Below are positions 8,801 through 52,446 of a stretch of 56,035 nucleotides of DNA, piece by piece. This stretch comes from Anaerolineae bacterium (GTDB lineage Bacteria; Chloroflexota; Anaerolineae; B4-G1; SLSP01): positions 1-56,035 of the forward strand of contig DAOTUH010000390.1 in assembly GCA_034437255.1 (NCBI GenBank), written 5' to 3'. The position numbers and the translations under genes are program-made. The notes beneath the pieces are model-generated. The model saw nothing but the letters and a program-made list of their open reading frames with translations. It ran no database searches and was not told the DNA's origin. The first letter of the stretch is position 1. Each line of letters starts with the position of its first letter.

Positions 8801-11291
8801 CGTAGAGTCTCGCATTGGCAATGGCGTTTGCCAGCTGCCCGGCCACGGTCTCTAAGATAGTCACGTCCTCTTCGTCAAACGCATACCGCTCTGTGGACTG
8901 AATGGTCATGGCGCCCAGGGGTTCTCCGCGCGAGATCAGCGGCAGTGCCATCTCTGAGCGGGTCTCCGGCAAGTAAGGATTGGCGTAGCGTTGGTCTTCC
9001 TCGGAGACTTCCATAGCGATTCGCGGCTCTTGCCGGGCCACACATTGCCCGATCATCGAGTCGCCGCCCACGGTCAAACGGTGTCCGGCTTCCAGCTGCC
9101 GACGACCCGCTTCCCCCGTGCCGGCCTCCAGAATGGCCCATTGAGCCGCGTCGTCTAGCATGAAGATACCCGCGTAGTACAGATCAAAGCTTTCTTTAAC
9201 GAGATCAACCGTCTGTGGAAGCAGCTCTTCAACATCCAACATCGCGGAGACGCTCTGGGTGACCTCTGCCGCGGTACGGAGCTGCAAGGCCCGCGCTTCC
9301 AACGCTTTCAGATGCAGATCGTTGACCAGTGCCGTTGCCACCTGTACAGCCATCGCCTGTAGCAGCTCCACATCCTCTTCACCAAAATCCAGGTCGCCCG
9401 GAGGGTTGATGGCCGTCATTGTGCCCAAGAGCTGATCCTGGTACTCGACCGGCACGACGAGAACGGCCCCGCACTCCGCCGCTTTGCGCCGGGCCTGAAC
9501 TTCGGGACTCTCCCGGGGATCAAGGACGCCTTGGGGCGAGATAGCAGGTTCGCGTCTGCGCAATACCCAGCCGCTTAGGCCATTCCAGAGTTCATCGAAT
9601 GTAATCTCTAAAGAGATCAAGTCGGCTCCCACACCGCCCCGAACGGAGTGGGTGACGTTCTCACGCAGCAGATCAAGTAAAATGATTGAAACACGGTCAG
9701 CCGGAAGGGCCATGGCAACGCTATCGGCCACCTCATCCAAGACCTCTGTCAAGTCCTCGGAGGAAATCACCGCGCTGGCAACACGGTACAACAGGTTTGT
9801 GCGGCGCAGAGATTGCGCTCTTTTTTCAAGCAGCTGCGCGTTCTGGATAGCGACCGCCGCTTGATTGACAATGGGCATCAGGAGCATGACGTCCTGCTCA
9901 TTAAAATTGCGGTCTTCAGGCTTATTGATCGCGGTAATCACGCCAAAGGCCTCATCCCGAATCAGAAGCGGCATAGTAAGGATGGATCCCGCCCCCACCT
10001 CGCGGCGACGTCGTTGCACCTCTGGGCTCTCACGGGGATCGGGCTTGCCCTTTGGGGAGAGGGCCGGTTCGCGCTCGCGAATACACCAGCCGGCTAAGCC
10101 CTCCCAAAATTCATCAAACTCAACCTGAACGACCTCGACGCCGGGCTCCAGTCCGGCAATCACAATCTCTTCGACTTTTCTGGCCTCTACGTCCATAAGT
10201 ATGATGGACACGCGATCTGTGTCCAAGACACGCCCAATGCCCTCGACAATCTCCTGCAGCAGATCGGGGAGATTCCTAAAGGAGAGCACAGCCCGTCCGG
10301 CCTCGTAGACAGCGACGGTCTGCTCCAAAGCCCGCTGCGTCTCCTCGTAAAACGTGGCGTTCTGGATAGCGTTGGCCAACTGATCGGCCATCATCTGCAT
10401 GAAGAGGGTATCTTCTTGCGCAAAGGCCCCTCGCTCCTCCGATTGGATGGTCATGGCGCCGATAACTTCATCACGACTGATAAGCGGTAACGCCATCTCG
10501 GAGTGGGTATCGGGCAGCACGGGATTATCAAAATGGAAGGCCTCTTCGCCGACGTCCAGGGCAATACGGGCTTCTCGCTGGGCAATACTCTGGCCGATCA
10601 TTGAGTCACCGCCGACGCGCAAGCGATGGCCGGCCTCAAGCATCTGTTGACCGGCTTCGCCAGTACCGGCACGCAGTTCGGCCCATATTTCGTCCTTGTC
10701 CAGCAGAAAGATCCCCACGTAATAGAGATCAAACCGCTCGCGAATCAGCTCAACAGCCCTGTCCAGCAGCTGTGGTCGCTGCAAGATGGAAGATGCTGCC
10801 TTAGCGACTTCGGATGCAGTGTACATCTGGTTAGTGTAATGACTGATGGCTTTCTGGAGAGCCTGACGAAGTTCCTCCTGCTCACGAAGCACGATCTGCT
10901 CACGCTCCCGGATAAAGCCCTTAAGGAGTACCACGGTATAATCATCGGTCTTCTCAAAGAGTCCATCCGATACGCCCTCACCGTCCAGGTGCTGTCTGCA
11001 GAAGCGACGTAACGTCGTATTCAAGCGAAGGATCGACGATTCGCTAAAGCCTTGGGCGGCGTAATAAACACCTTGGCGACGAATATCTTCATGATTGTTC
11101 TCGTCGAGTAAAAAGGCGAAGTAAGCGTCCGTAACTTCATCGGCGACAGTCGACAACTGCATTGGCAATACAGAAGAACGATTGGTGAACAGGGTCGACC
11201 GCAACGCCTCAAGTAAGCGATCATTCAGTGTTGAACGATACGCCAACCCGCGCTGTTCAATGTGTTCTCTGAGATTGTCTAAAGTCTCCAT
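5889..11291 (-). CDS. P1: 1800-aa cytoplasmic multi-GAF hybrid sensor histidine kinase (helical N-domain, at least 7 GAF-like domains including two GAF-A copies, HisKA, HATPase_c, two receiver domains)
   Basis: H-box 'FLANMSHELRTPLNSIIGFS'. N/G boxes 'NLVGNAAKFT', 'VEDTGIGI' and 'GGTGLGL'. Two REC domains ('VLTVDDDEG..LDILMPDVDG..KP' and 'VMIVDDSEKD..LDLMMPEMDG'). GAF-A copies 'FDLYYVGIFLLD...LPDTHSEMALPL' and 'FDLYYAGIFMLD...LPETRSEMALPL'. No hydrophobic TM segment is seen. Confidence 0.9.
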   Translation of the reverse strand: METLDNLREHIEQRGLAYRSTLNDRLLEALRSTLFTNRSSVLPMQLSTVADEVTDAYFAFLLDENNHEDIRRQGVYYAAQGFSESSILRLNTTLRRFCRQHLDGEGVSDGLFEKTDDYTVVLLKGFIREREQIVLREQEELRQALQKAISHYTNQMYTASEVAKAASSILQRPQLLDRAVELIRERFDLYYVGIFLLDKDEIWAELRAGTGEAGQQMLEAGHRLRVGGDSMIGQSIAQREARIALDVGEEAFHFDNPVLPDTHSEMALPLISRDEVIGAMTIQSEERGAFAQEDTLFMQMMADQLANAIQNATFYEETQRALEQTVAVYEAGRAVLSFRNLPDLLQEIVEGIGRVLDTDRVSIILMDVEARKVEEIVIAGLEPGVEVVQVEFDEFWEGLAGWCIREREPALSPKGKPDPRESPEVQRRRREVGAGSILTMPLLIRDEAFGVITAINKPEDRNFNEQDVMLLMPIVNQAAVAIQNAQLLEKRAQSLRRTNLLYRVASAVISSEDLTEVLDEVADSVAMALPADRVSIILLDLLRENVTHSVRGGVGADLISLEITFDELWNGLSGWVLRRREPAISPQGVLDPRESPEVQARRKAAECGAVLVVPVEYQDQLLGTMTAINPPGDLDFGEEDVELLQAMAVQVATALVNDLHLKALEARALQLRTAAEVTQSVSAMLDVEELLPQTVDLVKESFDLYYAGIFMLDDAAQWAILEAGTGEAGRRQLEAGHRLTVGGDSMIGQCVARQEPRIAMEVSEEDQRYANPYLPETRSEMALPLISRGEPLGAMTIQSTERYAFDEEDVTILETVAGQLANAIANARLYAEAEERYRDLQALQRRLTGETWASYGAQEEILGYTYDLSRLEPLHGQAVPMDMPAFSHDGPIIREDGERVTLTAPIALRDEPVGVLEVEDTIDRQLWSEDDLALIEEVREQIALVLENRLLFQQTTEALTETRALYEITRNIGRAVSVEEILSEAVAGFSRRPELDRVVVARLDPPENPEVLDVVVSWARNGASAKSGQRYPLDYWENFYEVFVEKGVFFTSDVEQDPLFDQTNLAVYRQLGVRGMVALQIAVRDEPYGMMLLYTRAPYEFSSEDLRFYDTIIRAASVALENQFLLETTREEADRRLFLNRIMSEAAASLEPEDLMQNVGELLTEHFNMPIMFWRWDGFKAYPTAVYRHDGKLLDLDRNMGCELVGMPGVGAAIRWERSILWNFEGHSYKGDALFTRILEELDLVSAFSAPLMVRGDVLGLISLGRQRDHPMIDEREKAVLRSAAVNIGVALENANLYQEAQETAERLREVDRLKSEFLANMSHELRTPLNSIIGFSRVMLKGIDGPLTEMQRTDLQAIFESGKHLLNLINDVLDLSKIEAGKMEFVFEPTDVEEIVRGVMSTAIALVKEKPIELQQEVPEDLPTILADERRIRQVVLNLVGNAAKFTEEGHISVSASQQGDEVVIAVEDTGIGIPPEKQDHVFREFQQVDSSSTRRFGGTGLGLPVSKKFVEAHGGHIWFESEVNLGTTFYVALPIDGPPPEPSEEALPEQRVHAEHTVLTVDDDEGVITLFRRYLEKQSYHVVGLTRADRVVEEAKRIQPYAITLDILMPDVDGWDVIQALKSDPETRNIPIVVCSIVSDRDKGLSLGVADYLVKPILEKDLLDSLDRLSKKTKETQNVMIVDDSEKDRKLLRRILEGVGYDVIAASGGMEAIAKIGDKPPDLLVLDLMMPEMDGFAVLETLRSNEATRQLPVVVVTAKELTLEERERLNMQVAALLEKGIFDQEMLLRDVASALDQL

Positions 11292-12723: not shown

Positions 12724-15678
12724 TCAGGCCTTCTCATCGCGTCCATCCCCTGACGAAGATGCATCTTCCTCATCAGGTGGCGTCAACGGGCCGGTGCCAG
12801 GCGGAATGGTCAGCGGGCCGGTATCCGGCTTGCGCTGCCGCTGCCATCCCGATCCACCCAGGTGTACCTTGGTGCGACGAGCTCGCAACGCTCGGCCCAC
12901 CTCCCGCGCGGCCGTACGCAGCACGTCCTCAACGTCTACAGCCGATTGGAGCTCCCCCGAGATCTCGCGGATCAATTGCTCGCGGCGCGCTCGCGCGGCC
13001 GTCGCCCGTAACTGCGAGCGGTTCTGGACCGCCACGGCTGCCTGAGCCGCCAAGCTCATAAGACGACGTAGTTCTGCTTCTGAAACAGCGATGGGCGCGC
13101 TATAGACGCCGTTGATGAATCCAATCCACTGTCCGCCCACGACCAGAGGCACAATAATCACCCCCCGGCCCCCAAACCGCTCTGCATAGAATACACGCAG
13201 AGACTCGCCCATACGTTGATCACTGCGAACATCTTCGACAACCGTAGGAGCGTCCGCATGGATAAGCGCCGGAGCAGAGGGATAGTCTTGCAAACTATAG
13301 CGGCTATCGACGTGCACGCCCTCTGCGGCCCAACGTGCAACGACGGTGTTTTGCTTCGGCGCCTTATCTCCTTCCCATGGCTCGCTGAACAAATCTAGCG
13401 TAGTCGCCAGGTCCGCTTCCCCGAGCACGGTATGCTCACGCATCGCCGAGAGAATCTCGCCGTAGGATTGGGCCAGGTTAAGATCGGCGCTGGCGCTAAA
13501 GAGCAGTTGCAATTCCTCAGAGCGTCGTTGGGTCTCAGCCAGCAGGTTGATATTCTCAACCACCACAGCGACCTGATTGGCCAGAGCGCTGGTAAGGTCT
13601 CTGGTATCCGGATCTAAGAACTGATCTTCTTGATGACGAATGAGGGCGATGAAGCCAATCTGGGCCACAGCCGTGCGAATTGCCACGTAGAGCACACGGC
13701 GCAGGGCATAATCGCCCGCGAGGGGCAACTCACGGAAGAATGGGATGGGCCTACCCAGCTCTGGACTCGAGATTCCTCTGAAGAAAACCTGCAAATCCGG
13801 CGGCAGCACCACCGGTTGCCGCTCTTCCAACGCCTCGCTGCCATCGGGCAGGATAATTGCCTGGGGTAAGACTTCACCTGCCTCAAAATCTTGATAGGTA
13901 AAAATGCCCACCACCATATCCAGGCCTTGCGCCAGAATCAGGGCGATTTTACAGAGTGCTCCCTCGGCGCTTGTGGTCGTGGACGCCGTCTGTAACACCA
14001 GGTTCAACAGCTCCTGCTGGCGAGCCGTACGCTGTGTCTCCTCAAACAGCCGCGCATTCTCAAGCGCAACAGCAACCTGATCGCTGACGTTTTGTATTAA
14101 CTCCATCTCCTCATCGGTCCAAATGCGGTCGGGATCGGAGAGGGCCAGAACCGCCAACGTCTCATCACGGTACCGCATGGGCTCCATCAAATAAGGATCT
14201 CCCCCATCAACAACCAACTTGTGCGCCAACGTGCCCGCTACCAAATCTTCCGGCACCGACATAGGTAGAACCGGATGCACATCCACACGGTCGTACTCAT
14301 AAGCCTGGGGACGGATACGGTTGATAACCCTGGCCCAGCCACGTCGACGTTGCTCGCGCTGCAGGGTCTCCAGCTCAGTCAAGGCAGACTGAGTTTGCTC
14401 CAGCAACCGCGCATTCTGTAGCGCAATCGACACCTGATCCGCCAGCAGTTGCAAAACCTCCACATCCTCGTCGCTGAAAGCGCTGGGTTCCGTACTCTGA
14501 ACGTCGAGAACGCCCACGACGTTCTGATCCTGATCGACCAGAGGCAATGCGATCTCCGAGTGCGTGTCCGGTAGTTCCGGCGTATTGAACCAGACTGCAT
14601 CCCCGCCAACATCAAGCGCGATGCGCGGTTCTCCGCTCATGGCCACGTCGCCCACGATGCCTTGCCGACCAATGCGCAAACGGTGACCACGCGCCAACAT
14701 GCGCCGTCCCCCCTTAGAGGACGCAGCCCGTAACACCGCCCATTCTCGCCTGTCATCGAGCAAGAAGATGCCGGCATGATAATAACCGAACTGCTCCGAG
14801 ATGGCCTGCACGGTCCTCTCCAGCAGCGACAGAACCTCGCGCACCTGAGCCGCTTCACGGCTCACCAAGGCTACCCCCTCAAGCTGCCGCCCTCGCCATT
14901 CGAGCGCGGTCGTTCGCTCCTTGACCTGACGTTCCAGACTGACAATCAAATCGTGTAGACGGTCCCCCATCTTGTTAAAGGAGCGGGCCAAGAAACCGAT
15001 CTCATCCTTGGTCTCGATGTTGATCTTGTACTGCAGATCCCCGGCCCCGATAATAGCCACACCCTCTGCAAGCACCCGCAGCGGTCGAACCACCATGCGC
15101 TGCACAAAGAATAGCAGCAAAATGACCAGCACAATCACCAACGCCGCAATGGACAACGATGGCACAATCGCCAGAAGAGGTGGATCCACGACCGTCGCCG
15201 GTTCTCCCACCACCACGTAGAGCGCCTGTTCGCTTTGGGGCAAGCGTACCTCTTCGAAGACCAGATAGACCTTGTCATAGGGAACCACGGAGCGTACCAC
15301 GGGGGAGGAGACTGTGCTGAGATCGGCCAACCCGGCCGCGTAGGTATTGTTCTTGCCGGGCACAGAATGGTAAACAACCAGGCCATTCTCCATGACGACG
15401 GCCGCAAAAGCCAGCTCAGGTTGATCTTGGACGCTATCACGGAGGTACCCACCCAGGGCGGGTAGATCATAGATGGTAGTTATGAAAGGTGTCAGCGCCT
15501 CCACGGTTTGAACGAGCTGGCGGGTAATCATCTCGCCCTTGCTCAACCGTACGTCGCGGTACTGAGCCTGATATCGCCCCCCCACATAGGCCGATACCGG
15601 CAACAAGATCAGCAGGGGCAGGAGTCCCACAATAAGTACCAGCCGCCAGCGCAAACTCAGCGATCTCTCAAACATCAT
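12724..15678 (-). CDS. P2, GAF-stub sensor paralog: TM - about 150-aa periplasmic domain - TM - HAMP - GAF-A - three further GAF-like domains - GAF stub; no output domain seen
   Basis: HAMP 'GDLQYKINIETKDEIGFLARSFNKM'. GAF-A 'FGYYHAGIFLLD..GHRLRIG..LPDTHSEIALPL..DVQS'. Tail 'ARREQLIREISGELQSAVDVEDVLRTAAREVGRAL'. The ATG at 15678 has AGGAG 5 nt upstream (the ORF track uses GTG 15696). Confidence 0.85.
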   Translation of the reverse strand: MMFERSLSLRWRLVLIVGLLPLLILLPVSAYVGGRYQAQYRDVRLSKGEMITRQLVQTVEALTPFITTIYDLPALGGYLRDSVQDQPELAFAAVVMENGLVVYHSVPGKNNTYAAGLADLSTVSSPVVRSVVPYDKVYLVFEEVRLPQSEQALYVVVGEPATVVDPPLLAIVPSLSIAALVIVLVILLLFFVQRMVVRPLRVLAEGVAIIGAGDLQYKINIETKDEIGFLARSFNKMGDRLHDLIVSLERQVKERTTALEWRGRQLEGVALVSREAAQVREVLSLLERTVQAISEQFGYYHAGIFLLDDRREWAVLRAASSKGGRRMLARGHRLRIGRQGIVGDVAMSGEPRIALDVGGDAVWFNTPELPDTHSEIALPLVDQDQNVVGVLDVQSTEPSAFSDEDVEVLQLLADQVSIALQNARLLEQTQSALTELETLQREQRRRGWARVINRIRPQAYEYDRVDVHPVLPMSVPEDLVAGTLAHKLVVDGGDPYLMEPMRYRDETLAVLALSDPDRIWTDEEMELIQNVSDQVAVALENARLFEETQRTARQQELLNLVLQTASTTTSAEGALCKIALILAQGLDMVVGIFTYQDFEAGEVLPQAIILPDGSEALEERQPVVLPPDLQVFFRGISSPELGRPIPFFRELPLAGDYALRRVLYVAIRTAVAQIGFIALIRHQEDQFLDPDTRDLTSALANQVAVVVENINLLAETQRRSEELQLLFSASADLNLAQSYGEILSAMREHTVLGEADLATTLDLFSEPWEGDKAPKQNTVVARWAAEGVHVDSRYSLQDYPSAPALIHADAPTVVEDVRSDQRMGESLRVFYAERFGGRGVIIVPLVVGGQWIGFINGVYSAPIAVSEAELRRLMSLAAQAAVAVQNRSQLRATAARARREQLIREISGELQSAVDVEDVLRTAAREVGRALRARRTKVHLGGSGWQRQRKPDTGPLTIPPGTGPLTPPDEEDASSSGDGRDEKA

Positions 15679-15789
15679 TGACTCTCCTGACCTCACTATG
15701 AGAACTCAGATTTTCAGGAAGCACTAAAGGAGATGAGGGAAGACATAGCGCCAGAAATCCGAGTTTTGATCTATCTCGTCGTGAGTCCA

Positions 15790-16893: not shown

Positions 16894-18665
16894 GTTTTGC
16901 CTCCATCGCGGTCAGATTCTCGAACATCCTCGACTTCGGCCGGCACCAACTGCAAGCGAGCACGCTCCACCTGCAAGGCACGTCCTAACTCCTCGACGGC
17001 ACTGCGCAGGATCGCATCGACTTGTACAGATGCTCGAACCCGCCCCACGATTTCACTGCGAGCGCGCTCTTGAGTAGCCCGGAGTCGCGTCTCCTCAAGC
17101 AGTCGGGCGTTTTCCAGCGCCAGACCCAGTTGCTCGGTAACGTCCTCTGCCAACCGCCGGGCCTCCTTCGACCAGGGATGTGGCGACTCAAAGATGAGCA
17201 CGCCCAACGTCCTTCGCTGGATCCGAACCGGCACTCGCAGCAGATACATGCCATCCCTTTGAATCACTTGAACTTCCTCCAGGTGAGAAGGATCCTCCGA
17301 CAACGCAAACCCCTCCGGCACCCGATCTTCCAAGTGAACCCGATTGTAGGCGTAGGCAATCTCACGCTGACGTCGCATCAATGCCTGACGCCAACCGGTG
17401 ACAACCTCTTCCTCCTGATATTGCTGCAAGCGTTCCAAGGTCCTCCGGGTTTCGCCGAGCAAGCGGGTGTTCTCAATAAACACCGCCAAGCCATCAGTAA
17501 GGATTGAAAGGACTTGAACATCTTCTTCTGTGAATGCCTCCTCCAGCTTGCTCTGAATATCCAAGAGGCCGATCAAATCTCCTCGCGAAACCAACGGCAA
17601 GATCATCTCTGAAGAGGTCTCTGGCAGATTAGGGTTCGCGTACCAAGTCCTGGTCAGTTCAACCTGACCGATAACCTGAGGGCGTAAGGTAGCCGATGCC
17701 TGCCCCACCAGGCTATCACCTCCTACCCCCAGCTTATGCCTCTCCGCGATCATCTTTTTGCCGGCCTCGGAAGAAGCAGCGCGCAACACCATCCAGCCCC
17801 CCGTATCATCCAGGAGGAAAATGCCAACGTGGTAAAAACCAAACCGTTGCGCAATAAACGTGACCGCTCTGGTCAACAATTCATCTAGATCGAAAATGCC
17901 CGCTAACACGCGATTCAACTCGGCGATAGCCTGAAACTGATTCACACGTTCGCGCAGCTGTTGCGTTCGCACAGCCACGCGCTGCTCCAGGTCGCTGCGG
18001 GCGCGCTCAAGATTTTGCGTTGCATCTTGTAGGGACCCCAGCGCCTGACGCAAACTACGCATGTTCAGAAAGGTCACGCCACCACCAGCCGACAACAACA
18101 TAATTAACGTAAATACAACAAAGTTGACTTTGCTTGCTTCCCCCGCTGTAAACGGCGGAGTGTAAAGGGAGAACCCCATTAGCAGATGCAAGATGATGAA
18201 AAATGCTAGCACACCGCCACTTAAACGTAAGCTATAATCAGGCTTCTGCAAAATTCCGGAGACCGCAACGGGCCAGAAGAAGAGCACCCACGCGGACGAA
18301 TAGATACCGTCAAAAAGCGCAGAAGCCAAAGCTATGCCCAGATAGGTGCCCCACACAAAGATCTGAACGGTCGACTGGATTTTGCCCCGTTTCACGCGAT
18401 AGAAGCAGTAAGCGGAAAACGGAATGAAAGCCAGGGTAAGCATCGTTCCAAAGATATAATCTGGATGCGGCATGAGACCGACGAGGCCCACACTCAAGAA
18501 GACCGTGAGTAGCGCAATCACGATGTCCATCGTAATGAAGAGCAAGGTGTTGAAAACTCGGCCTAGCCGCTGTATCTCCTCATCAGGATGCTCAACGCTG
18601 ATCAGTCGCTCCCAAAGTTCACGAATCCTCGACGTCGGGCGCTGATGACTTTCGAATTGCGTCAT
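16890..18665 (-). CDS. P3, GAF-stub sensor paralog: class-I polytopic membrane module (about 6 TM) - coiled coil - GAF-A - half-GAF - GAF stub
   Basis: 'FGFYHVGIFLLDD..HKLGVGGDSLVG..LPETSSEMILPL..DIQS'. Tail 'LENARLLEETRLRATQERARSEIVGRVRASVQVDAILRSAVEELGRAL'. The ATG overlaps the P4 stop (ATGA), and GAGGAGG is 5 nt upstream. Confidence 0.85.
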   Translation of the reverse strand: MTQFESHQRPTSRIRELWERLISVEHPDEEIQRLGRVFNTLLFITMDIVIALLTVFLSVGLVGLMPHPDYIFGTMLTLAFIPFSAYCFYRVKRGKIQSTVQIFVWGTYLGIALASALFDGIYSSAWVLFFWPVAVSGILQKPDYSLRLSGGVLAFFIILHLLMGFSLYTPPFTAGEASKVNFVVFTLIMLLSAGGGVTFLNMRSLRQALGSLQDATQNLERARSDLEQRVAVRTQQLRERVNQFQAIAELNRVLAGIFDLDELLTRAVTFIAQRFGFYHVGIFLLDDTGGWMVLRAASSEAGKKMIAERHKLGVGGDSLVGQASATLRPQVIGQVELTRTWYANPNLPETSSEMILPLVSRGDLIGLLDIQSKLEEAFTEEDVQVLSILTDGLAVFIENTRLLGETRRTLERLQQYQEEEVVTGWRQALMRRQREIAYAYNRVHLEDRVPEGFALSEDPSHLEEVQVIQRDGMYLLRVPVRIQRRTLGVLIFESPHPWSKEARRLAEDVTEQLGLALENARLLEETRLRATQERARSEIVGRVRASVQVDAILRSAVEELGRALQVERARLQLVPAEVEDVRESDRDGGKT

Positions 18666-20956: not shown

Positions 20957-20958
20957 TG

Positions 20959-22660: not shown

Positions 22661-22696
22661 ACTATGATCTAACCTATGACCTGACCTATGACCTGT
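22661..22696. repeat. 3 x 12-bp tandem repeat (ACTATGATCTAA / CCTATGACCTGA / CCTATGACCTGT) spanning the P6 stop and the P6-P5 spacer
   Basis: Read directly from the sequence. On the minus strand the unit is (A/T)CAGGTCATAGG, just 5' of the P5 RBS AAGGAAGAGG. Confidence 0.7.
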
Positions 22697-26517: not shown

Positions 26518-26726
26518 TTCTATCCTCCTCACAAAGTGTACCCTCATTGGGCAAACGAAGCAGTTCCAGGGTGGCTCAGACGCCATAGGCGGATCACAGT
26601 CATGTTTACCACCCACATCAACCCCAACGTCGTTTGCCTTGATCGCGTCTAAGCACGTTCTGGGGTAGCAAGGATGGTTTCAGTAGCCAATTTGTTTCGA
26701 AATCCCGCATTCCAAATGGAAACGGA

Positions 26727-38005: not shown

Positions 38006-38049
38006 TTCTACCTCCTGTATCTTCTTCACTGTTGTACTACGTCCAAAAT

Positions 38050-43181: not shown

Positions 43182-45044
43182 CTACTCCGCACCGTCGCCC
43201 GATTCGAGACGGACTATCACGTTACGCAACCCCAACGATTCACCGATTTCGCGCACGGTAGTCTCCAATACCGCGTCAACGACCGGTATCTCACGCATCC
43301 GCGCCGTGATCTCACCAATCAAACGTTCATGGGCCACACGCTGTTGGGCTTCCTCAAACAGACGCGCACTATCCAACGTAGGGCCTATCTGATTTACCAA
43401 AGTTTGTACCAGTGCTATTTCCTCATCCGTCCACAGACCGGTCTCGGGCGGCTTACGGAAGTGGAGAACGCCGACATGCTGCTCGCGCACTTTCACGGGA
43501 ACCGCCAAGATGCCGGATTCCGCCTCTGGATCTATGGATTGCACCGGTTCTCCCGTCTGTAACGCGGTTCGCATCTCGTCGTACCACGTGGACGTCTCAG
43601 AGAGACCTTCCTTGGCACTATAGCGATAGCCGGTGCGGTGCGCCCGGATGATCTCCTGCCACGCCTCCCGGCTGAACTCACCATAAAGTCGCTGCACCTC
43701 TTGCAGACGCTCGCGCGCTTCTTGATAGAGGCGAGCATTGTCCAGCGCCAGCGCGATCTGATCCGCCAAGCTCTGGAAGACTGTGACGTTCTCCTCGGTG
43801 AAAGCATCGGGCTCCCTGCTCTGCACGTCCAGAATGCCGATGGTTTCGCCACGAACGCGAAGTGGAAGCGCGACCTCCGAACGAGTTTCCGGCAGATCCG
43901 GGTTATCGAAGTACGAGACGTCTCCGCCGGTGTCCAACGCCACGTACGGCTCTCCTATCTGCATAACACGCCCCACGATGCCCTCACCGAGACCCAGACG
44001 ATGCCTTTGTTCCAACATCCGCTGTCCGCCTGGGCTCGATGCTGTTTTCAACACTGCGTGTGTCCGTGGTTCATTGATGAGAAACAGGCCTGCATGGTAA
44101 AACCCAAACCGCTCGCTGATCAACTGTACCACGTATTCTTGCAGCCGCTCCGGATCCAAGATAGTCGTTGCCATGCGTCCCACGTCCGCCGAGATCCGCA
44201 TCTGCTCCGCCAGGGACTCCAGCGCGACTGTACGCTCGGAGATGCGTTGCTCCAGGGTACCGTAGAGCGTCTGCAGCTCAATCGCCATCTGGTTAAAAGC
44301 CTCGGCCAGCTGCCTCGGCTCCCCGCCCATCTCCATCTCTATCCGATGATCCAACTCGCCAACGGCGAAACTTTCTGCCCCTTTCAGTAAACGAGTCGAT
44401 GCATATTCAAAGGTTTGAATCGTTGAGTAGGCTATAACCACCACAATCAGAAAAGCCACACCTGCCCCAATCAGAACCGAGCGAAAGACGTACCGGTTCG
44501 CCTGGACTGTGGCCTCCAGCGCCTCGGTCTGCGCCCGATTCGAAGCGGCGACCAGTTCATCCAAGGACGCTGAGATACGCGTGATCTCATTTCCCAGCGC
44601 GATGACCCGGGTACGTCGAATCTCTTCCCATTCCCCATCGACGGCGGCCTCAATAAGGTACTCGGTGAGGTTCTGCAGATTGTAGACGGCACCTACGAGC
44701 GCCGAATCTACGTCGTCATCGAACACACGCCTCAAATCCTCATAGCGCGCGTTCATAGTTGTCAAGCGTGCGCGCACCCGATCGCGGAAGTCCTCTCGAT
44801 CCTCCAACAAGATAGCCTCATCAATGGCCAGAACGAGGTCCAGACGGGTTCTGGAAAGCGCCTCCGCCGCCAATGTGCGCTGCGTCTGCAATCTGAGCGC
44901 TTCGTTGGCGTCCGAGATTCGCTGGAGTTGATACACAATATAACCTGTCAGTATCACGAGGAGTAAAGAAAAGATACTGAAGCCCACGATCAATCGAGCA
45001 CGGAGTGAAAGGCCTCCCCGCCGGGGTATCGCTCGTCGTTCCAT
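43182..45044 (-). CDS. P13, GAF-stub sensor paralog: TM - helical (4HB-like) periplasmic domain - TM - HAMP - GAF-A - half-GAF - GAF stub
   Basis: HAMP 'GELDHRIEMEMGGEPRQLAEAFNQM'. 'FGFYHAGLFLINE..TASSPGG..LPETRSEVALPL'. Tail 'LDSARLFEEAQQRVAHERLIGEITARMREIPVVDAVLETTVREIGESL'. Confidence 0.85.
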   Translation of the reverse strand: MERRAIPRRGGLSLRARLIVGFSIFSLLLVILTGYIVYQLQRISDANEALRLQTQRTLAAEALSRTRLDLVLAIDEAILLEDREDFRDRVRARLTTMNARYEDLRRVFDDDVDSALVGAVYNLQNLTEYLIEAAVDGEWEEIRRTRVIALGNEITRISASLDELVAASNRAQTEALEATVQANRYVFRSVLIGAGVAFLIVVVIAYSTIQTFEYASTRLLKGAESFAVGELDHRIEMEMGGEPRQLAEAFNQMAIELQTLYGTLEQRISERTVALESLAEQMRISADVGRMATTILDPERLQEYVVQLISERFGFYHAGLFLINEPRTHAVLKTASSPGGQRMLEQRHRLGLGEGIVGRVMQIGEPYVALDTGGDVSYFDNPDLPETRSEVALPLRVRGETIGILDVQSREPDAFTEENVTVFQSLADQIALALDNARLYQEARERLQEVQRLYGEFSREAWQEIIRAHRTGYRYSAKEGLSETSTWYDEMRTALQTGEPVQSIDPEAESGILAVPVKVREQHVGVLHFRKPPETGLWTDEEIALVQTLVNQIGPTLDSARLFEEAQQRVAHERLIGEITARMREIPVVDAVLETTVREIGESLGLRNVIVRLESGDGAE

Positions 45045-45048
45045 ACCA

Positions 45049-46770
45049 TCAGCCTCCGATCACCGGAGATTCTTCATCCACCAGCTGCAAAACAACCTCA
45101 TCCAAGGCCAGGTGCTGACCGAGCTCTCGAACCGTCGCTGCAAGCACGTCGTCAAGATTGAGTGAGGCTCGCATTTGGGTCGTCACTTCACTGACCAGCT
45201 GCTCCTGTGCCGCACGGCGTCGTGTCTCCTGATAAAGCCGGGCATTCTCCAACGCCAACCCAATCTGCTCACCCAGCTGCATCAATAATTCACGCTCATC
45301 CGTGCTCCAAGAGCCACTCTCTGCCGCTTTGCGAGCGTTGATTACTCCCACAATTTGTCCTCGCACCCGGACAGGTACAGCTACGACCGTGCCTTTTTCT
45401 TCAGCCATTGCCGTCTCGCCTGTGCGCATAACTCGGAGCGAGTACTTGTCAATGATGTCCTCAGCTACGTTCAGACCCAACTGATCGCGCGTGAACCCCA
45501 AGCCCTTCTCTCTTTTAAGCAGGTCTTGCCAGCCCGCGCGGCTTACCTCACCATACGCCCGACGTTCCGCCTCCAGGCGCCTCTCTATCTCTCGCACCAA
45601 CTGCACGTTGCTGATAACCAGGGCGATCTGATCAACCAGCGTCTGCAACACCAACACGTCCTCTTCCCCAAACGCATCGATGTGTTTCGATTGTACATCC
45701 AGTACACCGATAACGCGCTCCCGAGTCTGCAGCGGCAAAGCAACCTCAGAACGGGTCTCCGGCAGTTCAGGATTGTCGAAGTGGACAGCATCCTCACCGA
45801 CATCGCGGGCGATGCGCGCCTCGCCATGTCTCGCAACGTAGCCAACTACCCCCGTCTCCCCCACGCGCAGGCGGTGCCCCTGTGCCAACATACGTTGGCC
45901 TCCCTCAGATGAAGCTGCGCGCAATTCTGCGTACTCCTCCGTGGCATCGAGGAAAAAGACCCCGGCGTGATAATAACCAAAGCGTCTGGAGATCAAGTTG
46001 ACGACCCGACGCAGCAACCGATCCAAATCACGAATGGCAGAGGTTTCCCGCGCCACCTGGGCAGCCGTCGCCAACTGAACGGACCGCCGTTCCAGGGCCT
46101 CTGTGCGCTCTTCGACCAGCTTGTGCAGTTGGTTCTGGCGCAAATTCAGGTGTTGGGTCAGCTCCTGGCTTTTACCCAGCGCGTCGGACAGTTTCAAGAG
46201 AAGATAGCTCTGTGCCAGATTAGCCAGGACACCCAAGATCACCACCAGGGTGCCTCCGCTCAACCAGGCCAGTGGATCTATCACATTGGCCTGGACCGAA
46301 GGCGGGACGACCAGACGCCCGGTCGCGTAGGCCCATCCAAAGACACCCAACACCTCCGCCACCACCACCAGCACGCCAATCCCGGCCACTCGGCCCCAGA
46401 ATACACTGGTGAAAAAGGCAAACGCCAGCATAAAGACATGGCCCTCACCACTAAGTCCAAAATAGTAATAGTTGAGACAGCCAAGCCCGAAGAGAATAAC
46501 CAAAAAAGTACCTGTCTGCAAAGCGTATGTGCTCTTCTTCCAGAAGGCGACGACTAAGAAGAAGAGATACGCGCCCACATAGAAAGGAATAACCGCCAGG
46601 TTCTGGTTTACGTAGTCATAGACGCCGCTGACAACGACCGCTATCCCTCCCAGAACAACCAAAAGGTTCAAAATCACGTGAATCAGTTGCCGCCGGAAGG
46701 TTTCGACGTTTTCAACCGAGGAGTCCCGATCTTGCACTTCTTCTACGCTGACTCGTTCATCTTCAGCCAT
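45049..46770 (-). CDS. P14, GAF-stub sensor paralog: class-II polytopic membrane module - coiled coil - GAF-A - half-GAF - GAF stub
   Basis: 'GLSGEGHVFMLAFAFFTSVFWGRVAG'. 'FGYYHAGVFFLDA..AASSEGG..LPETRSEVALPL'. Tail 'LENARLYQETRRRAAQEQLVSEVTTQMRASLNLDDVLAATVRELGQHL'. The ATG at 46770 has GGAG 6 nt upstream (the ORF track uses TTG 46776). Confidence 0.85.
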   Translation of the reverse strand: MAEDERVSVEEVQDRDSSVENVETFRRQLIHVILNLLVVLGGIAVVVSGVYDYVNQNLAVIPFYVGAYLFFLVVAFWKKSTYALQTGTFLVILFGLGCLNYYYFGLSGEGHVFMLAFAFFTSVFWGRVAGIGVLVVVAEVLGVFGWAYATGRLVVPPSVQANVIDPLAWLSGGTLVVILGVLANLAQSYLLLKLSDALGKSQELTQHLNLRQNQLHKLVEERTEALERRSVQLATAAQVARETSAIRDLDRLLRRVVNLISRRFGYYHAGVFFLDATEEYAELRAASSEGGQRMLAQGHRLRVGETGVVGYVARHGEARIARDVGEDAVHFDNPELPETRSEVALPLQTRERVIGVLDVQSKHIDAFGEEDVLVLQTLVDQIALVISNVQLVREIERRLEAERRAYGEVSRAGWQDLLKREKGLGFTRDQLGLNVAEDIIDKYSLRVMRTGETAMAEEKGTVVAVPVRVRGQIVGVINARKAAESGSWSTDERELLMQLGEQIGLALENARLYQETRRRAAQEQLVSEVTTQMRASLNLDDVLAATVRELGQHLALDEVVLQLVDEESPVIGG

Positions 46771-46802
46771 ACCCAACTCCTAAACTAAATGCCCAGGCGT
46801 CG

Positions 46803-49800
46803 TTAGCTTTCCTCATCAAGTCCACCGGAATCCACCAACCGGACGGTAACTTTCTCCAGATCCAACGCCTGATAGATTGCATCGGCGGCTGTGCGTAAGA
46901 CCGTCTCCACATCGAGCCGTTCTCGCACCCGCCCCGTGACGTCCCCCAGCAGGTGCTCGCGCGCGGCTGCGCGCTGGCTCTCCTCAAACAGGCGCAGGTT
47001 CTCCGCCGTCGACGCCATGCGTTCGGTCAACAGTTTCGCCATCTCGATTTCGTCGGCGGTCCAACTGCGCCCGGCGCTCTTCAAGGCCACCGCGCCAATG
47101 GGCTGGCCCCGGACGAGAGCGGGAATCACCAAAATCTCCTCCGCGACCTCGCCATCCTGTCCGTCCCGTGCCAGCACCACAACCGCTCGTTGGCGCACGG
47201 CCTGTTGTATGGACGCCTGCAGCTCATCGTCCACCACGATGTCACCGGAACGTTCCAGTTGATAGATGAGCTCTGGCTGCGTTTGGAGGTACTCCTCCCA
47301 TGCCTGCTGAATGTAGCGCCGTTGCATCGTCTCCATCTCTGCCAGCGCGGATTGCGTTTGCTCCAATAAGCGGGCGTTCTCGATAGCCGTCGCGATCTGA
47401 CCGACCATGGTCTGGAAGGCCGTGACATCCTCTTCGGTGAAAGCCGCGACATCCGTAGAATGGACCGTCAACGCCCCGATGGGTTTGCCCCGGCTGAGCA
47501 ACGGCAGAGCCATCTCCGAGCGCGTTTCCGGTAACAGCGGGTGATCCAACCCTCGCGTGCTTTTGGTGACGTCAGTCACGATGTGCGGTTGCCCATCCGA
47601 GATGCAAACCCCGACCAACGAGTTGTCGTTCACGGGAAGCTGGTAACCTTCATCCAGCATCTTTCGCCCCGACACACCCGTGCCGCCACGCAGGACAGCC
47701 CACCGTCCAGACCGGCGGGACCATTCACCGCGCTCACTGATTAAGAAGAGCCCCACGTAGTAAAGATCGAAGCGCTCGCGCACAAGATCCACCACACGCT
47801 GCAGCAACGTATCGACGTCCAGAATGCCAGTGACAGTATAAGCCACATCGGCGGCGATTTGAAGCTGATTGCTGCGGCGTTCCAACGCGAGCATCGCTTC
47901 CTTGAGGGGGGTGATATTGCGGGAGACGCCAAAGACGCCCACAATCTCGCCCTCTCTATCTCGCATGGGCAGCTTCGACGTCGAGACCCACGCCACTGTA
48001 CCGTTGGGCCACGTCTCTTTCTCCTCCTTCTCCAGAATCGGCTCGCCGGTGCGGATAATCTCTTGTTCGTCTTCGTAAGCTTCGCGGGCGTGCTTTTCCG
48101 TGAAGAAGTCGAAGTCGGTCTTGCCGATGATTTCCTCCCGGCTTTCCACGCCGAACCAGTCCAGCAGTGCCTGACTCACCTCAATAAAGCGGCTCTCGCG
48201 ATCCTTGAAGAAAATGTGGTCCAACGTGTTCTCCAGGAGAACGTGGAGCAAATACTCTTGATAAGCAAGGGCTTCTTCTGCTTCTCGACGCTCGGCGATC
48301 TCCCGCTGCGCCTGTTCGTAGAGCCGGGCATTGGCAATCGCGTTTCCCAGCTGATCGGCCAAGAGCTGCAATGTGGTGATATCCATCTCGCCAAAGGCCC
48401 TGGGTTCCGTGCTCTGAATGGTCAAGGCGCCGATGGCTTCTCCACGGCTGACCAGAGGCAACGCCATCTCCGAACGAGTATCTGGCAGCCAGGGATTATC
48501 AAACCGCGAGGCCTCCTGGCCCACGTCCAGTGCAACGTGAGCCTCCTTTTCCGCCACAGACCGGCCGATCATGGACTCGGCCCCCACACGCAACTTGTGC
48601 TGGCGAGCGACCATCTCGCGGCCCGCCTCTCCTGTGCCGGCTTGGAGCACGGCCCACTCGCCCGAATCATCGACCAGGAACAAGCCGGCATAGTAGAGAT
48701 CGAACTGCTCACGGACCAACTCGACAACGCGCTGAATCAGGGTCTCGGTCTTCAGGAGCGAGCCGGTCGCTTGGGCGACCTCTGCCGCCGTCTGAATACG
48801 CGCGGCACGTCGTTCGGCTCGCTCCACAAGCTGACTTCCATACAGAGCCCTGCTGATATCCCGCTGAAGAATGTCGTAAATCTCTCCACGCTGCGGACGG
48901 GCATCGAAGAGCACAAACCCAAGTTGGTGCTCGCGGAAATACAGTGGCTCAACGTGCAAACTGAATCGCTGAGACGGTAGCAGATCCGAAGGCACCAATT
49001 TCTGGGAAGGGAAACGTATCTCTTCGGATATAAGATGCTGCCCGTTCGCGTAGGCCAGAAGCAAGCGGGCTCCCGTCGTCGGCGCCAAGGGATTCTCATA
49101 CAGCGAAAGATAACAACCGGGGATATCCAGACGTTCCATGGCTTCGGTGAGGCGCCGCATCATCTCATCCACAGCCAGTGAGATGCTAAGCGTCTGGCCA
49201 ATTTGGGCTAGCAGCGTCCGCAAACCCACCTCCCGGAAACGTCGATCCGCCTGTACCCGGGCGGCCCACTCGCCAACTTTGACGCGACCTCGCTGCCAGA
49301 GCTCTTCTGCGCGCATCAGCGACCGCACCGTGTCCAAGGCCACCAGCAGCTCCCGGCGCATCGCAGAGAGCACATCTTGCCAACACGCGATGTTGACGTC
49401 GTTCTCAGCGCTGGCGCGAAGTATTTCCTCCAAACAAGCCAAAAACTCGTCACTGGATGTCGCATTGATGTCCACAATCAGTGCGTCCAGCAGTTTCGTG
49501 AGCCTTCCATCCTCATCCTGCCCCGACAACGCCGGCGTTACATCGCGCATCGCCGCCAGAACCTGGGTGACGACCGCATCAGACACCACGAAGTCAGAGT
49601 CAGACTCGGAAACAGAGACCTTCGACAGATCCGGAGAGGCTACCAGTTCAACACTACGTGCTTCACAGCCACAGGACTCGCGCACCACGAGATGAGGCGG
49701 CACTTTGATAATCTCCGGCAGTGATTCTTCACCCTCGAGCTCTCTGATGAGCAGCTGAGCCGCCCGGCGACCCATCTCGGCCCAGGGCTGATCGACGGAT

Positions 49801-50552: not shown

Positions 50553-50553
50553 C

Positions 50554-52446
50554 TTATTGTGCTCCTTCATCCGATCGCTGCGGCGCCGCTCTCGTCTGTG
50601 TGCCGAGCTGCAGGTAGGCACTCCCGCCAAGCGTCTCCACCAAGGATTTCGCCGTAATCTGAAGCAGCGATCTCATATCCGACGCTTGCCGCATCCGATC
50701 TGTAACGTCGTGGGCTGCTTGCTCACGAGCCACGCGCCGCTGCGTCGCCTCTAGCAAACGAATGTTCTCCAGCACCACCGCTGCCGTCGCCACCAACGCA
50801 GTGTAGAGTTGTCGTTCGCTCACGCCAAAGGGGTGCACGGTGTAATACGTGACCACCAGCTGCGCAATGGTTCGCCTGCCCAACCGCACCGGAACGATGG
50901 CCAGGCTGCGCGCCGCGGACTGGTGCATCAACTGCGCCAGCTGCTTGTGATACATCTCTGGAACGTGACTGGCCGGCAGCTCACTCATATTCTCTATAAA
51001 TAAGGGGCTCTCTGACGCCACCAGCAGCTCTCGCAAGTATAGCGTCTCCGGAAGGGTGGGTCGGGCGCCATCTTCTTCAGGAAAAGAGATGTCGTCGCCC
51101 CGCAACTCTGCTGCCACAGTGATATCGTTGGTCTCAGCGTCTAGGGTACAGATAAAACCGCGCCTGGGACTATACTCCCGGACCATCTCCAAGATCACAC
51201 CGTAGACATCGCGCACTTGACGGGCAACCGCCATACGCTGCGCCATCCGGTAGAAAGGACTGGTCGCCTCAAGGATCCCAACCTCCTGAGCAAAGCGCCG
51301 CGCGTTTTCCACCATCACGGCCAGCTGACTGGCAAGATACTCCAAAGAACGCACGTCATCTTCGTCAAAGGCATTTTCTTCCGTACTCTGCACGTCCAAC
51401 ACCCCGATGACTTGTCCGGCGATCCCCAGGGGCAGCGTCGCCTCCGAACGGGTGGCCGGCAGCAAGGGATTATCAAAATGCACGGCGTCTTCACCCACGT
51501 CCAGGGAAATGCGGGGCTTGCCGTGCTCCACCACCCATCCGACCATGCCTTCACCCCGAACCAATTGATGCTCCTCGGCCAGCATCTGCTGCCCGCCTTC
51601 TGACGACGCGGCCTTCAGCACGGCGGTGTCGCCGGTTTCTGAGACCAGAAAGAGGCCCGTGTGGTAGAAGCCAAACTTCTCAGAGATCAAACGCACAGCC
51701 CGATACAACAACTGCTCCAAATCAAAAATCGAACTGATGATCCGCACGACTTCTGCGCCCGCTTCCAAATGCCAGGCGCGTCGCTGCATGGCGTAGTTGG
51801 CCTCTTGAAGCGTCAAAGCGCGACGATCCAGCTCCTCTTGTTGCTCGCGGAGATCTGTTGAGCGCTGAAAGAATTCTTCTAGCTGTCGCGATAGGCGCCT
51901 GAACAAGGCCCCGGCCGAGGCCACCAGAAGCCCACCGCTCAACGTGAAGACCATCACCCCGCTGAGCAGGTTCAACCAGGGTCGTGGGACCTCAGAGAGT
52001 ATACCCGGCCCCGCGACTTGGCCCCTCATGATCGCCCAGGCGATGCCCAACAACGTCAGCATATCAAGGCCCAGAGCGTAAAACCCCGCCCGCTGGCCGA
52101 TCAAAATGGTCATCATGACCGGTAGAGCCAGCAGAAAGACTCGCCCATCAGCACCCCAGCCGGAAAAGACAAGATCGGACAGGCCCAAAATGTAGATCAA
52201 CGCCAACATCAACCATTTTTTCAACGGGTAGTAGGGCTTGTGACCAAAGTGCAAGGCCAGCATACTCCCATAGGCCACGACATAGACCGCAATCAAACCA
52301 AAGTTCTGCTGTGAAAAGGCGGTGTATACACCAAATGCCAAAGCGCCGGCCCCGCCATACACCGCGGCCCGAAATGCCTGATCAATCACGCGTTGTCGCA
52401 GCCGCTCTGTAACCGTCTGATAGGAACGTCCCTGCTTTTCGCTCAC
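50554..52446 (-). CDS. P16, GAF-stub sensor paralog: class-II polytopic membrane module - coiled coil - GAF-A - complete second GAF - GAF stub
   Basis: 'GWGADGRVFLLALPVMMTILIGQRAG'. 'FGFYHTGLFLVSE..AASSEGG..LPATRSEATLPL'. Tail 'LENIRLLEATQRRVAREQAAHDVTDRMRQASDMRSLLQITAKSLVETL'. The GTG start has GGAGG 5 nt upstream. Confidence 0.85.
   Translation of the reverse strand: MSEKQGRSYQTVTERLRQRVIDQAFRAAVYGGAGALAFGVYTAFSQQNFGLIAVYVVAYGSMLALHFGHKPYYPLKKWLMLALIYILGLSDLVFSGWGADGRVFLLALPVMMTILIGQRAGFYALGLDMLTLLGIAWAIMRGQVAGPGILSEVPRPWLNLLSGVMVFTLSGGLLVASAGALFRRLSRQLEEFFQRSTDLREQQEELDRRALTLQEANYAMQRRAWHLEAGAEVVRIISSIFDLEQLLYRAVRLISEKFGFYHTGLFLVSETGDTAVLKAASSEGGQQMLAEEHQLVRGEGMVGWVVEHGKPRISLDVGEDAVHFDNPLLPATRSEATLPLGIAGQVIGVLDVQSTEENAFDEDDVRSLEYLASQLAVMVENARRFAQEVGILEATSPFYRMAQRMAVARQVRDVYGVILEMVREYSPRRGFICTLDAETNDITVAAELRGDDISFPEEDGARPTLPETLYLRELLVASESPLFIENMSELPASHVPEMYHKQLAQLMHQSAARSLAIVPVRLGRRTIAQLVVTYYTVHPFGVSERQLYTALVATAAVVLENIRLLEATQRRVAREQAAHDVTDRMRQASDMRSLLQITAKSLVETLGGSAYLQLGTQTRAAPQRSDEGAQ

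Follow-up and report, generated by a model that had tools for sequence, protein, structure and literature searches.

The window analyzed here, a 56,035-nucleotide stretch of an Anaerolineae bacterium (GenBank assembly GCA_034437255.1, contig DAOTUH010000390.1, which is contig C390 of a 5.17-Mb assembly in 612 contigs), carries a tandem array of sensor genes that share one type of GAF domain, GAF-A, and with it a short motif, LP[ED]T[RH]SE, that recurs from gene to gene. The array lies on the minus strand and runs from 55778 down to 5889 in the order receiver-only protein, kinase P17, and the sixteen paralogs P16 to P1, with a methyltransferase gene just before P1 and periplasmic binding protein genes interspersed among the paralogs. 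Each array gene joins a different input part to GAF-A and a common tail, which is canonical in P3 to P15 and atypical in P16. In P2 to P16, Pfam recognized diverse inputs, one GAF type, and no output; the inputs comprise MASE11 and other multipass membrane parts, HAMP, dCache, a four-helix bundle, and binding-protein-like periplasmic, solute-symporter-like, and LacI-type parts. Profiles of the GAF superfamily (Pfam PF01590, PF13185, and PF13492) scored above their cutoffs in all 16 array proteins. An output domain was recognized by neither Pfam nor NCBIfam in P2 to P16 (15 of the 16 paralogs), and HisKA/DHp and HATPase domains, absent from P2 to P16 by Pfam, are carried only by P1 and P17. The GAF domain of P17 is not of the GAF-A type (67 bits) and lacks the motif. 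The features are listed below in array order; residue numbers throughout are those of P10, the reference, whose structure was predicted.

55218..55778, minus strand: receiver-only protein of 186 amino acids at the head of the array; a counterpart heads the array of genome G043
52470..54785, minus strand: P17, membrane HAMP-GAF-HisKA-HATPase kinase (Pfam) at the upstream end of the array
51277..51765, minus strand: GAF-A of P16, type II (gene 50554-52446; MASE11 input, atypical tail; variant LPATRSE at 51442-51462)
48300..48794, minus strand: GAF-A of P15, first copy, type I (gene 46803-50630; soluble, with a LacI-type binding-protein domain and PAS; LPDTRSE at 48468-48488)
47346..47861, minus strand: GAF-A of P15, second copy, type I (motif at 47514-47534)
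45577..46071, minus strand: GAF-A of P14, type II (gene 45049-46776; MASE11 input; motif at 45745-45765)
43707..44198, minus strand: GAF-A of P13, type II (gene 43182-45044; HAMP input; motif at 43875-43895)
41991..42482, minus strand: GAF-A of P12, diverged type II (gene 41508-43169; variant LAGTRSE at 42159-42179)
40290..40784, minus strand: GAF-A of P11, type II (gene 39753-41486; MASE11 input; motif at 40458-40478)
38563..39057, minus strand: GAF-A of P10, type II (gene 38050-39756; six transmembrane segments; motif at 38731-38751)
38053..38598, minus strand: common C-terminal module, P10 serving as the example for P3 to P15 (alignments, structure model, fold search, alignment to 6OAP)
34822..35310, minus strand: GAF-A of P9, type I (gene 34297-36981; dCache-HAMP input; motif at 34990-35010)
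31484..31978, minus strand: GAF-A of P8, type I (gene 30956-34030; N-terminal solute-symporter-like membrane part; motif at 31652-31672)
27252..27746, minus strand: GAF-A of P7, type II (gene 26727-29162; HAMP input; variant LPETRSA at 27420-27440)
23271..23765, minus strand: GAF-A of P6, type I (gene 22686-24926; 4HB_MCP-HAMP input; motif at 23439-23459)
21460..21954, minus strand: GAF-A of P5, diverged type II (gene 20959-22644; variant LEDTRSE at 21628-21648)
19157..19648, minus strand: GAF-A of P4, type II (gene 18662-20956; periplasmic ABC_sub_bind-like input; motif at 19325-19345)
17439..17933, minus strand: GAF-A of P3, type II (gene 16890-18665; five transmembrane segments; variant LPETSSE at 17607-17627)
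14383..14880, minus strand: GAF-A of P2, type II (gene 12724-15696; HAMP input, extra GAFs; LPDTHSE at 14554-14574)
5889..11291, minus strand: P1, soluble hybrid histidine kinase of 1800 amino acids, with seven GAF stretches (two of them type I GAF-A), HisKA, HATPase, and two receivers (Pfam, our own hidden Markov model [HMM] map, NCBIfam)
10329..10823, minus strand: GAF-A of P1, first copy, type I (LPDTHSE at 10497-10517)
8784..9278, minus strand: GAF-A of P1, second copy, type I (LPETRSE at 8952-8972)

A first, sequence-only reading of this DNA had placed 18 copies of the motif on the minus strand, and all of them were confirmed at their sites: every coordinate pair translates to LP[ED]T[RH]SE, exactly in 13 of the 18 cases and as one-residue variants in the other five (P3, P5, P7, P12, and P16). 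A six-frame regular-expression scan of the window returned the same 13 exact matches and none on the plus strand, against 0.0013 matches expected by chance from the amino acid composition of the six frames and none in 200 shuffles of the window. Among the 17,710 open reading frames (ORFs) of at least 100 amino acids in the whole genome, the strict motif occurs 13 times, always inside the window, and a genome-wide search with our own HMM found 21 copies of GAF-A above 200 bits, 18 of them inside the window. The coding 36-mers of the 18 sites include no two alike, and 905 of 1456 same-residue codon pairs (62%) use differing codons across the motif copies. Since the codons are thus scrambled and the 36-mers all different, the conservation is that of protein sequence in old paralogs and not the product of recent copying: the 18 copies are old and held by protein-level selection, and recent duplication or gene conversion is excluded. 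Paralog identity is approximately 50%, which together with the differing codons means that synonymous sites are saturated; site conservation was gauged by column conservation. In an alignment of 42 GAF-A domains, conservation reaches 90% or more in 21 columns, and the 12-residue motif, the most conserved stretch of GAF-A, holds 7 of these. Mean column identity is 54% for the whole of GAF-A versus 40% for the common tail, and the input parts are not alignable, so that the earlier picture of diverse inputs attached to a strongly conserved GAF motif stands, GAF-A being the best-conserved part of otherwise very different receptors. The 18 occurrences of the motif follow from the makeup of the window, in which 16 old paralogous sensor genes stand in tandem, and the repetition is very probably a family signature multiplied by paralogy.

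That family is not confined to this locus. When the P10 GAF-A (169 amino acids) was used as the query against representative proteins, 49,501 matched at an E value of 1e-3 or below, 23,760 at 1e-10, and 7,631 at 1e-30, many of the matching representatives being giant proteins with 6 to 14 GAF copies. We mined 148 of the listed representatives for 638 near-full-length GAF copies and scored these against our GAF-A HMM. The loose motif P.T.SE..hPh was present in 226 of the 311 copies that scored at least 150 bits, in 60 of 132 at 100 to 150 bits, and in 6 of 195 below 100 bits; the strict motif was present in 88 of the 311 high-scoring copies. In relatives the residue after LP is variable (E, D, Q, L, N, or A). 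When species-representative genomes were scanned, 845 of 860 pattern matches were confirmed, and the best 80 of these loci are all from Chloroflexota (Anaerolineae, Anaerolineales, Thermoflexales, and others), with the loose motif in 75 and the strict motif in 36. GAF-A is also found in ordinary histidine kinases, both in the source genome (contigs C452 and C377) and elsewhere, and close relatives are annotated only as "GAF domain-containing protein". The caution that the motif might be generic to a large GAF subfamily was therefore well placed, given the 7,631 representatives, the 226 of 311 high-scoring copies, and the ordinary kinases. From these sequence comparisons, the motif is not peculiar to the locus but characterizes a very large GAF subfamily that has expanded in Anaerolineae.

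Comparison of the 311 high-scoring copies with the 195 generic GAFs below 100 bits separates the residues of the motif into two kinds. Some are shared with GAFs at large: P346 is present in 311 of 311 high-scoring and 191 of 195 generic copies, and S341 in 250 and 124, respectively. Others distinguish the subfamily, namely, E342 (306 of 311 versus 36 of 195), T339 (303 versus 50), and, on the next strand, Q360 (300 versus 32). R340 is present in 241 high-scoring and 71 generic copies, and N333 and H299 in 282 and 267 of the 311 high-scoring copies, respectively. At the level of sequence, then, the motif is a composite of a generic GAF scaffold (.RS....P.) and subfamily-specific polar residues (N..LP.T..E), followed by [DT].Q on the next strand. 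The subfamily-specific set comprises N333, T339, and E342, D or T358 and Q360 on the next strand, and H or Y268 and F272 on strand 1. S341 and P346 belong to the generic scaffold or core, as would L345 and L347, judging by strand alternation.

The predicted structure of P10 places these residues on a familiar fold. The AlphaFold2 model (88 sequences; predicted local distance difference test score [pLDDT], 86) is a canonical GAF with a six-stranded sheet and flanking helices, in which the motif forms the loop after a short helix (residues 328 to 331) and the strand at residues 341 to 349; residues 268 and 272 lie on strand 1, residue 342 lies on strand 5, and residues 358 and 360 lie on strand 6. 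In the alignment of 88 sequences, E342, D358, and Q360 are invariant. A Foldseek search with the model recovered many solved GAFs at E values of 1e-7 or below, and the best single-domain matches were the EI-Ntr (PtsP) GAF (3CI6 and 3TRC), the enzyme free methionine-R-sulfoxide reductase (fRMsr; 3MMH), and Lcd1 (5W10), with target-normalized template modeling (TM) scores of 0.78 to 0.83. The profile of 42 GAF-A domains matched fRMsr 3MMH best among solved structures (E value, 1.1e-13), over nearly its full length, with the aligned stretches FGWFWVGFY/fglYhvglF, HIACSSLS--RSEIVVPL/fldnpeLpetRSEiaLPL, and GVLDADS/GvLDVQS, and the best single-sequence match to GAF-A was the type II fRMsr Ta0848.

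The fRMsr family (MsrC/YebR; 3MMH, 1VHM, and 1F5M; type II Ta0848, 4MN7) binds free methionine sulfoxide and shares with GAF-A the patterns RSE..[LV]P[LV] and G.LD..S. According to a preprint on Msr enzymes, substrate binding and catalysis in yeast fRMsr depend on Cys125 (within H[I/V]xCD), Trp66, Tyr70, Glu132, Asp149, and Asp151, and the spacings of these residues fit the aligned GAF-A columns. The Trp aligns with H or Y268, the Tyr with F272, the catalytic Cys with N333, the Glu with E342, the first Asp with D or T358, and the second Asp with Q360, so that all six active-site positions coincide with the most conserved polar, subfamily-specific positions of GAF-A. The two resolving cysteines correspond to approximately residue 292 and to V309. 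None of the three cysteines is present in the GAF-A alignment, and the P10 GAF-A contains no Cys at all; with the catalytic cysteines absent, GAF-A would be a binding domain or a switch, not a reductase. Of the substrate residues, the Glu is kept in 306 of 311 copies, and type II retains the first Asp, which type I replaces with Thr (Asp141 to Thr), whereas the second Asp has become Gln (Asp143 to Gln), the Trp is His or Tyr, and the Tyr is Phe or Tyr. The two also differ in setting, since fRMsr is a free enzyme, whereas GAF-A is a domain within receptors and kinases. In a PDE6 paper, the GAF sheet is described as having the order 3-2-1-6-5-4, and the ligand as sandwiched by the sheet on one side and helices 3 and 4 on the other; strands 1, 5, and 6, which carry residues 268 and 272, 342, and 358 and 360, are therefore neighbors. 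The conserved residues are spaced so as to share one strand face, and L343, L345, and L347, on the other face, would pack on helices 1 and 5.

From this homology it is likely that the conserved polar residues line the ligand-pocket side of GAF-A. The suggestion that the conserved residues form a pocket thus holds for the polar ones, by homology with fRMsr, but not for S341, P346, L345, and L347, which are scaffold or core, and the interpretation offered in the sequence-only reading is thus partly supported, with the motif probably located on the pocket side of a GAF type shared by the whole family. GAF domains are among the commonest sensor modules of bacteria, and few have known ligands. What is new here is the fRMsr-derived pocket map and the presence of two covarying pocket versions; a large GAF subtype expanded in one lineage is now defined by a precise residue signature that is tied to the active-site positions of a solved enzyme relative.

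The division of the 18 domains into two subtypes in the sequence-only reading was correct as listed. Type I (FDLYY..AGTGEAG..SMIGQ) has seven copies (P1 twice, P6, P8, P9, and P15 twice), and type II has 11 (P2, P3, P4, P5, P7, P10 to P14, and P16), of which P5 and P12 are diverged; a single tree branch with support of 90/92 separates them. The stretches that define the subtypes (YH/YY, SSEGG/GTGEAG, VVGYV/SMIGQ, and LD.QS/LT.QS) all lie on active-site elements of fRMsr. Positions 268 and 358 covary strictly, with 11 His-Asp and 7 Tyr-Thr pairs in the window, a split that reflects a single branch. The 311 broad copies comprise 160 His-Asp, 85 Tyr-Thr, 30 Tyr-Asp, and 16 Tyr-Ser pairs and no His-Thr or His-Ser pair, counts that overstate the number of events because kin are not independent. 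The absence of His-Thr and His-Ser across diverse multi-GAF proteins points to 268 and 358 as a coupled pair. As read from the sequences, the putative pocket comes in two forms: type II has His268 and Asp358, and type I has Tyr268 and Thr358. Because the types differ at pocket-aligned positions, two pocket chemistries fit better than one common ligand, and any ligands bound would probably be of two kinds; the idea of a single ligand common to all GAF-A domains is not supported. A Cys in the stretches ..IGQC../..VGVC.. is present in four of the seven type I domains (8784-9278, 23271-23765, 34822-35310, and 47346-47861) and in none of the type II copies, and it lies three residues after the position aligned with the second cysteine of fRMsr.

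Whether GAF-A holds a small molecule in reality is a question on which the sequences leave us a little short of even confidence. If it does, the acidic pair E342 and D358 would suit an amine better than a phosphate, and since the relatives fRMsr and the EI-Ntr GAF bind free amino acids, a nucleotide would be less likely than an amine-bearing metabolite; that the ligand is specifically amino acid-like can be put forward only tentatively and is, overall, rather unlikely. The EI-Ntr GAF was the top Foldseek single-domain match (TM scores of 0.79 to 0.83, target normalized; profile E values of 1.7e-11 and 8.5e-11 for 3CI6 and 3TRC) and shares the LPET stretch with GAF-A (YLPETGEE in 3CI6). As described in the literature, it is a cytoplasmic domain that senses a free amino acid, glutamine, and controls a phosphoryl-transfer enzyme. 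It differs from GAF-A in having an insertion after LPET and in lacking the E342, D358, and Q360 set in the printed alignment, and it stands N-terminal to a PEP-utilizing enzyme, whereas GAF-A lies within membrane receptors. A further parallel is the linker of VirA, a membrane sensor of Agrobacterium, whose cytoplasmic GAF-like domain, modeled on fRMsr 3MMH, is reported to perceive phenols as a second signal and to integrate them with periplasmic inputs delivered in part by a binding protein; the same logic is proposed for the array receptors. Unlike these receptors, VirA has its own kinase and receiver, and the likeness is one of signaling logic.

We envision the following mechanism, to the whole of which (family signature, pocket, checkpoint, and shared kinase P1) we give about an even chance. 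The array genes place different input modules on one cassette, made up of GAF-A, a reduced GAF-B, and a truncated-GAF tail. In each receptor dimer, GAF-A would be a checkpoint on the cytoplasmic side, with a polar, acidic pocket that would hold a small cytoplasmic molecule, probably an amine-bearing one such as an amino acid, or alternatively an internal hydrogen-bond network in place of the small molecule. The state of the pocket would govern how a signal received by the variable input travels along the helices into the common tail, which would hand it on to the shared hybrid kinase P1, itself a carrier of two GAF-A domains. Several points weigh against this scheme, in addition to the generic nature of S341 and P346 and the kinship that underlies the covariation. 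Side-chain orientation and the cavity are deduced from homology and strand alternation; identity between GAF-A and fRMsr is low, and of the active-site positions Asp143 is Gln and another is Thr in type I. Insertions relative to fRMsr, of six residues at helix 2 and of two (E338-T339) in the loop, may have altered the shape of the GAF-A pocket or filled it. Hydrophobic residues and generic scaffold make up half of the motif, receptors are linked to P1 by gene neighborhood only, and GAF-A sits in midpathway, where, in published accounts, GAF-like domains can be pure transmitters.

This last consideration leads to the most serious rival, in which GAF-A binds nothing and is a conserved relay and dimerization unit; its motif would then be maintained by the needs of folding and of a buried hydrogen-bond network that fixes the register of the flanking helices. 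It is in keeping with this explanation that S341 and P346 are found in 124 and 191, respectively, of the 195 low-scoring copies, that L336, P337, L345, and L347 are hydrophobic, and that GAF-A is placed between HAMP or membrane helices and long C-terminal helices; moreover, positions 268 and 358, with their strict His-Asp or Tyr-Thr pairing, could simply touch each other inside the domain. NarX and NarQ offer a precedent on both sides of the argument. According to published work, their GAF-like domain has the same place in the chain as GAF-A (sensor, transmembrane helix, HAMP, signaling helix, GAF-like domain, output helices), has no known ligand, and is probably a transmitter; however, its conservation falls below that of the remaining protein, whereas no part of the array receptors is better conserved than GAF-A, which also bears a polar signature. 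The higher conservation of GAF-A than of the tail, taken with that signature, favors a specific function over a mere relay. In addition, the subfamily-specific polar residues fall on all six fRMsr active-site positions, and two buried acidic residues without a partner would be costly. We therefore regard a ligand-free relay as unlikely on balance, although a self-contained hydrogen-bond switch remains a serious rival to a ligand-filled pocket.

Two further explanations appear improbable. In one, the example given in the sequence-only reading, GAF-A binds a cyclic nucleotide second messenger. The cyclic nucleotide-binding GAFs (Lcd1, 5W10; PDE2, PDE5, and PDE6; CyaB2) have the same fold, and the tandem GAF arrangement of 1MC0 matches the P10 model (E value, 3.8e-9). 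From the PDE loop pattern, T339 presumably occupies the same position as Thr174 of PDE6. The GAF of Lcd1 matches the GAF-A profile over its full length (E value, 2.3e-11), and its loop ..TGFETKT.., before strand 5, aligns with ..DLPETRS.., pairing T339 with a Thr. Lcd1 is described as binding cAMP, and Thr174 of PDE6 GAF-A, two residues after Tyr172, as contacting cGMP, in the respective sources. On the other hand, the residue after S341 is Glu in 306 of 311 copies but Ile in Lcd1, and GAF-A has the acidic E342 and D358 where the cyclic nucleotide-binding GAFs have hydrophobic residues, so that its pocket would repel phosphate; fRMsr is also a better profile match than Lcd1. NKFDE is the signature of cyclic nucleotide-binding GAFs, and inspection by eye found no N-K pair of this signature in the P10 GAF-A. 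The nucleotide proposal is not supported, given the two acidic pocket positions and the free amino acids bound by the closest relatives. An exclusion based on the absence of cyclases fails, since the genome encodes class III cyclases (eight matches, all above the family cutoff). In the other explanation, to which we assign a similarly small probability, GAF-A would couple receptors to the kinase by like-to-like contact. P1 has two GAF-A domains and a tail-like segment, a GAF-A-bearing hybrid kinase ends the arrays of genomes G043 and G015, the receptors have no output of their own, and GAFs generally dimerize via their first and last helices, according to the literature. The conserved polar residues, however, lie on the strands and loop that face the pocket side in relatives and not on the first or last helix, and GAF-A is also present in ordinary kinases that need no such partner. 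A predicted complex of two GAF-A copies scored 0.09 against a mark of 0.42 and gave neither an interface nor a verdict.

Other classes of GAF pocket gave partial matches at most. According to the literature, a conserved Cys binds the chromophore in bilin-binding GAFs, and the 18 GAF-A domains of the window contain no conserved Cys column. Chains of the phytochrome class match only the C-terminal third of the GAF-A profile, and those of DevS, which belongs to the DevS/DosS type of GAF with heme ligated by a proximal His, match only profile positions 68 to 163, with E values of approximately 2e-5. With the signature and its map onto fRMsr, the intracellular stimulus of these output-less Anaerolineae receptors becomes a matter for direct binding experiments. 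A ligand, if found, would account for the joint gating of a kinase-less receptor array and its shared kinase; if the pocket is empty, the motif just marks the fold of a paralog family, and the result is an ordinary one.

The module that follows GAF-A is itself built from GAF parts. Alignments show that P3 to P15 have a common tail of 180 residues after GAF-A; in it, a long helix leads into the reduced GAF-B, and a second long helix leads into a third GAF that is cut off after its first helix and strand. In the model of the tail (pLDDT, 88), matches to single GAFs are confined to tail residues 39 to 126 (Z scores of 7 to 9), tandem-GAF and phytochrome chains align to residues 28 to 182 in the fold search, and in 6OAP the aligned counterpart of the final 50 residues is the linker together with the first helix of the following GAF. 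The alignment over residues 28 to 182 indicates that the end of the tail is the start of a further, cut-off GAF. A circularly permuted domain was considered and ruled out, since residues 39 to 126 match the later part of GAFs and the tandem-GAF and phytochrome chains cover residues 28 to 182. No conserved His was found in the helices in the tail alignment. The same stop point, after the first helix and strand of the third GAF, is found in all 13 canonical receptors and in 16 relatives from two other genomes, and in the canonical receptors a short, variable acidic stretch follows this stub. P16, which combines MASE11 with a type II GAF-A, lacks the canonical tail; the 298 residues after its motif match the tail HMM in part. 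In P1, residues 826 to 1303, between the second GAF-A and the kinase core, contain the reduced-GAF unit of the receptor tail three times, approximately 174 residues apart. The N-terminal 157 residues of P1 match none of the profiles run, and residues 1 to 170 gave no GAF-like match to the GAF-A HMM, the only query applied to them (best E value, 0.76).

The array is real as a genomic context and is found in several Anaerolineae genomes. Matches to the P10 tail occur in 18 of 201 genomes sampled from the phylum, each time in tandem on one contig. The G043 and G015 arrays have the same kinds of receptors, and at their ends lie a GAF-A-bearing hybrid kinase, a receiver-fused threonine-synthase-like enzyme, and an EamA exporter; in five of five further array-bearing genomes, the best match to the fused enzyme adjoins the array. 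In the source genome, the fused gene lies on a separate 5-kb contig beside a receiver-kinase gene. We found no publication on the array system or the motif in a literature search. On the boldest construction of these data, GAF-A would be a cysteine-less descendant of the fRMsr pocket and a common metabolite gate on receptors and kinase, many receptors would feed a single kinase, and the phosphorelay would control the exporter as well as the threonine-synthase-like enzyme, whose substrate or product would serve as the ligand. Such a scheme is very improbable; were it true, a metabolic feedback loop would be closed, and the His/Asp and Tyr/Thr pockets would read two metabolites.

The threonine-synthase-like enzyme is a pyridoxal phosphate-dependent enzyme with a C-terminal receiver and lies beside the array in seven of seven other genomes examined, usually followed by the EamA exporter; its loci include L005 1483-3213 (genome G000, contig C562), L004 13542-15245, and L001 1001-2668. 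Its best NCBIfam match is a threonine synthase model, at 261 bits, under the cutoff of 303 bits. The G015 array also has NMT1 and Peripla_BP_6 genes. No ParA gene lies beside the array in the window, where a methyltransferase gene takes the place held in the G043 array by a ParA-like ATPase gene; the sole ParA-like match in the source genome is 35% identical and is on contig C337. The methyltransferase gene (11773-12561, between P2 and P1) encodes an S-adenosylmethionine-dependent enzyme of the Methyltransf_19 family. On the plus strand, positions 1 to 1431 hold a Fur-family regulator gene followed by a gene for a ZnuA-type zinc-binding protein, with no apparent link to the array. An ORF of 574 amino acids at 29235-30959, which overlaps the end of P8 by 4 bases, has no match in Pfam or NCBIfam. 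The membrane part of P8 itself has 10 hydrophobic segments and weak similarity to the monocarboxylate symporter MctP and is followed by GAF-A and the common tail, an architecture suggestive of a transporter joined to a receptor. Genes for periplasmic binding proteins (ABC_sub_bind, Peripla_BP_4, and NMT1/THI5-like) at 15790-16893, 25342-26616, and 37016-38029 lie directly downstream of P3, P7, and P10, the first with a 4-base overlap with P3, and their products are probably ligand-delivery partners of the adjoining receptor.

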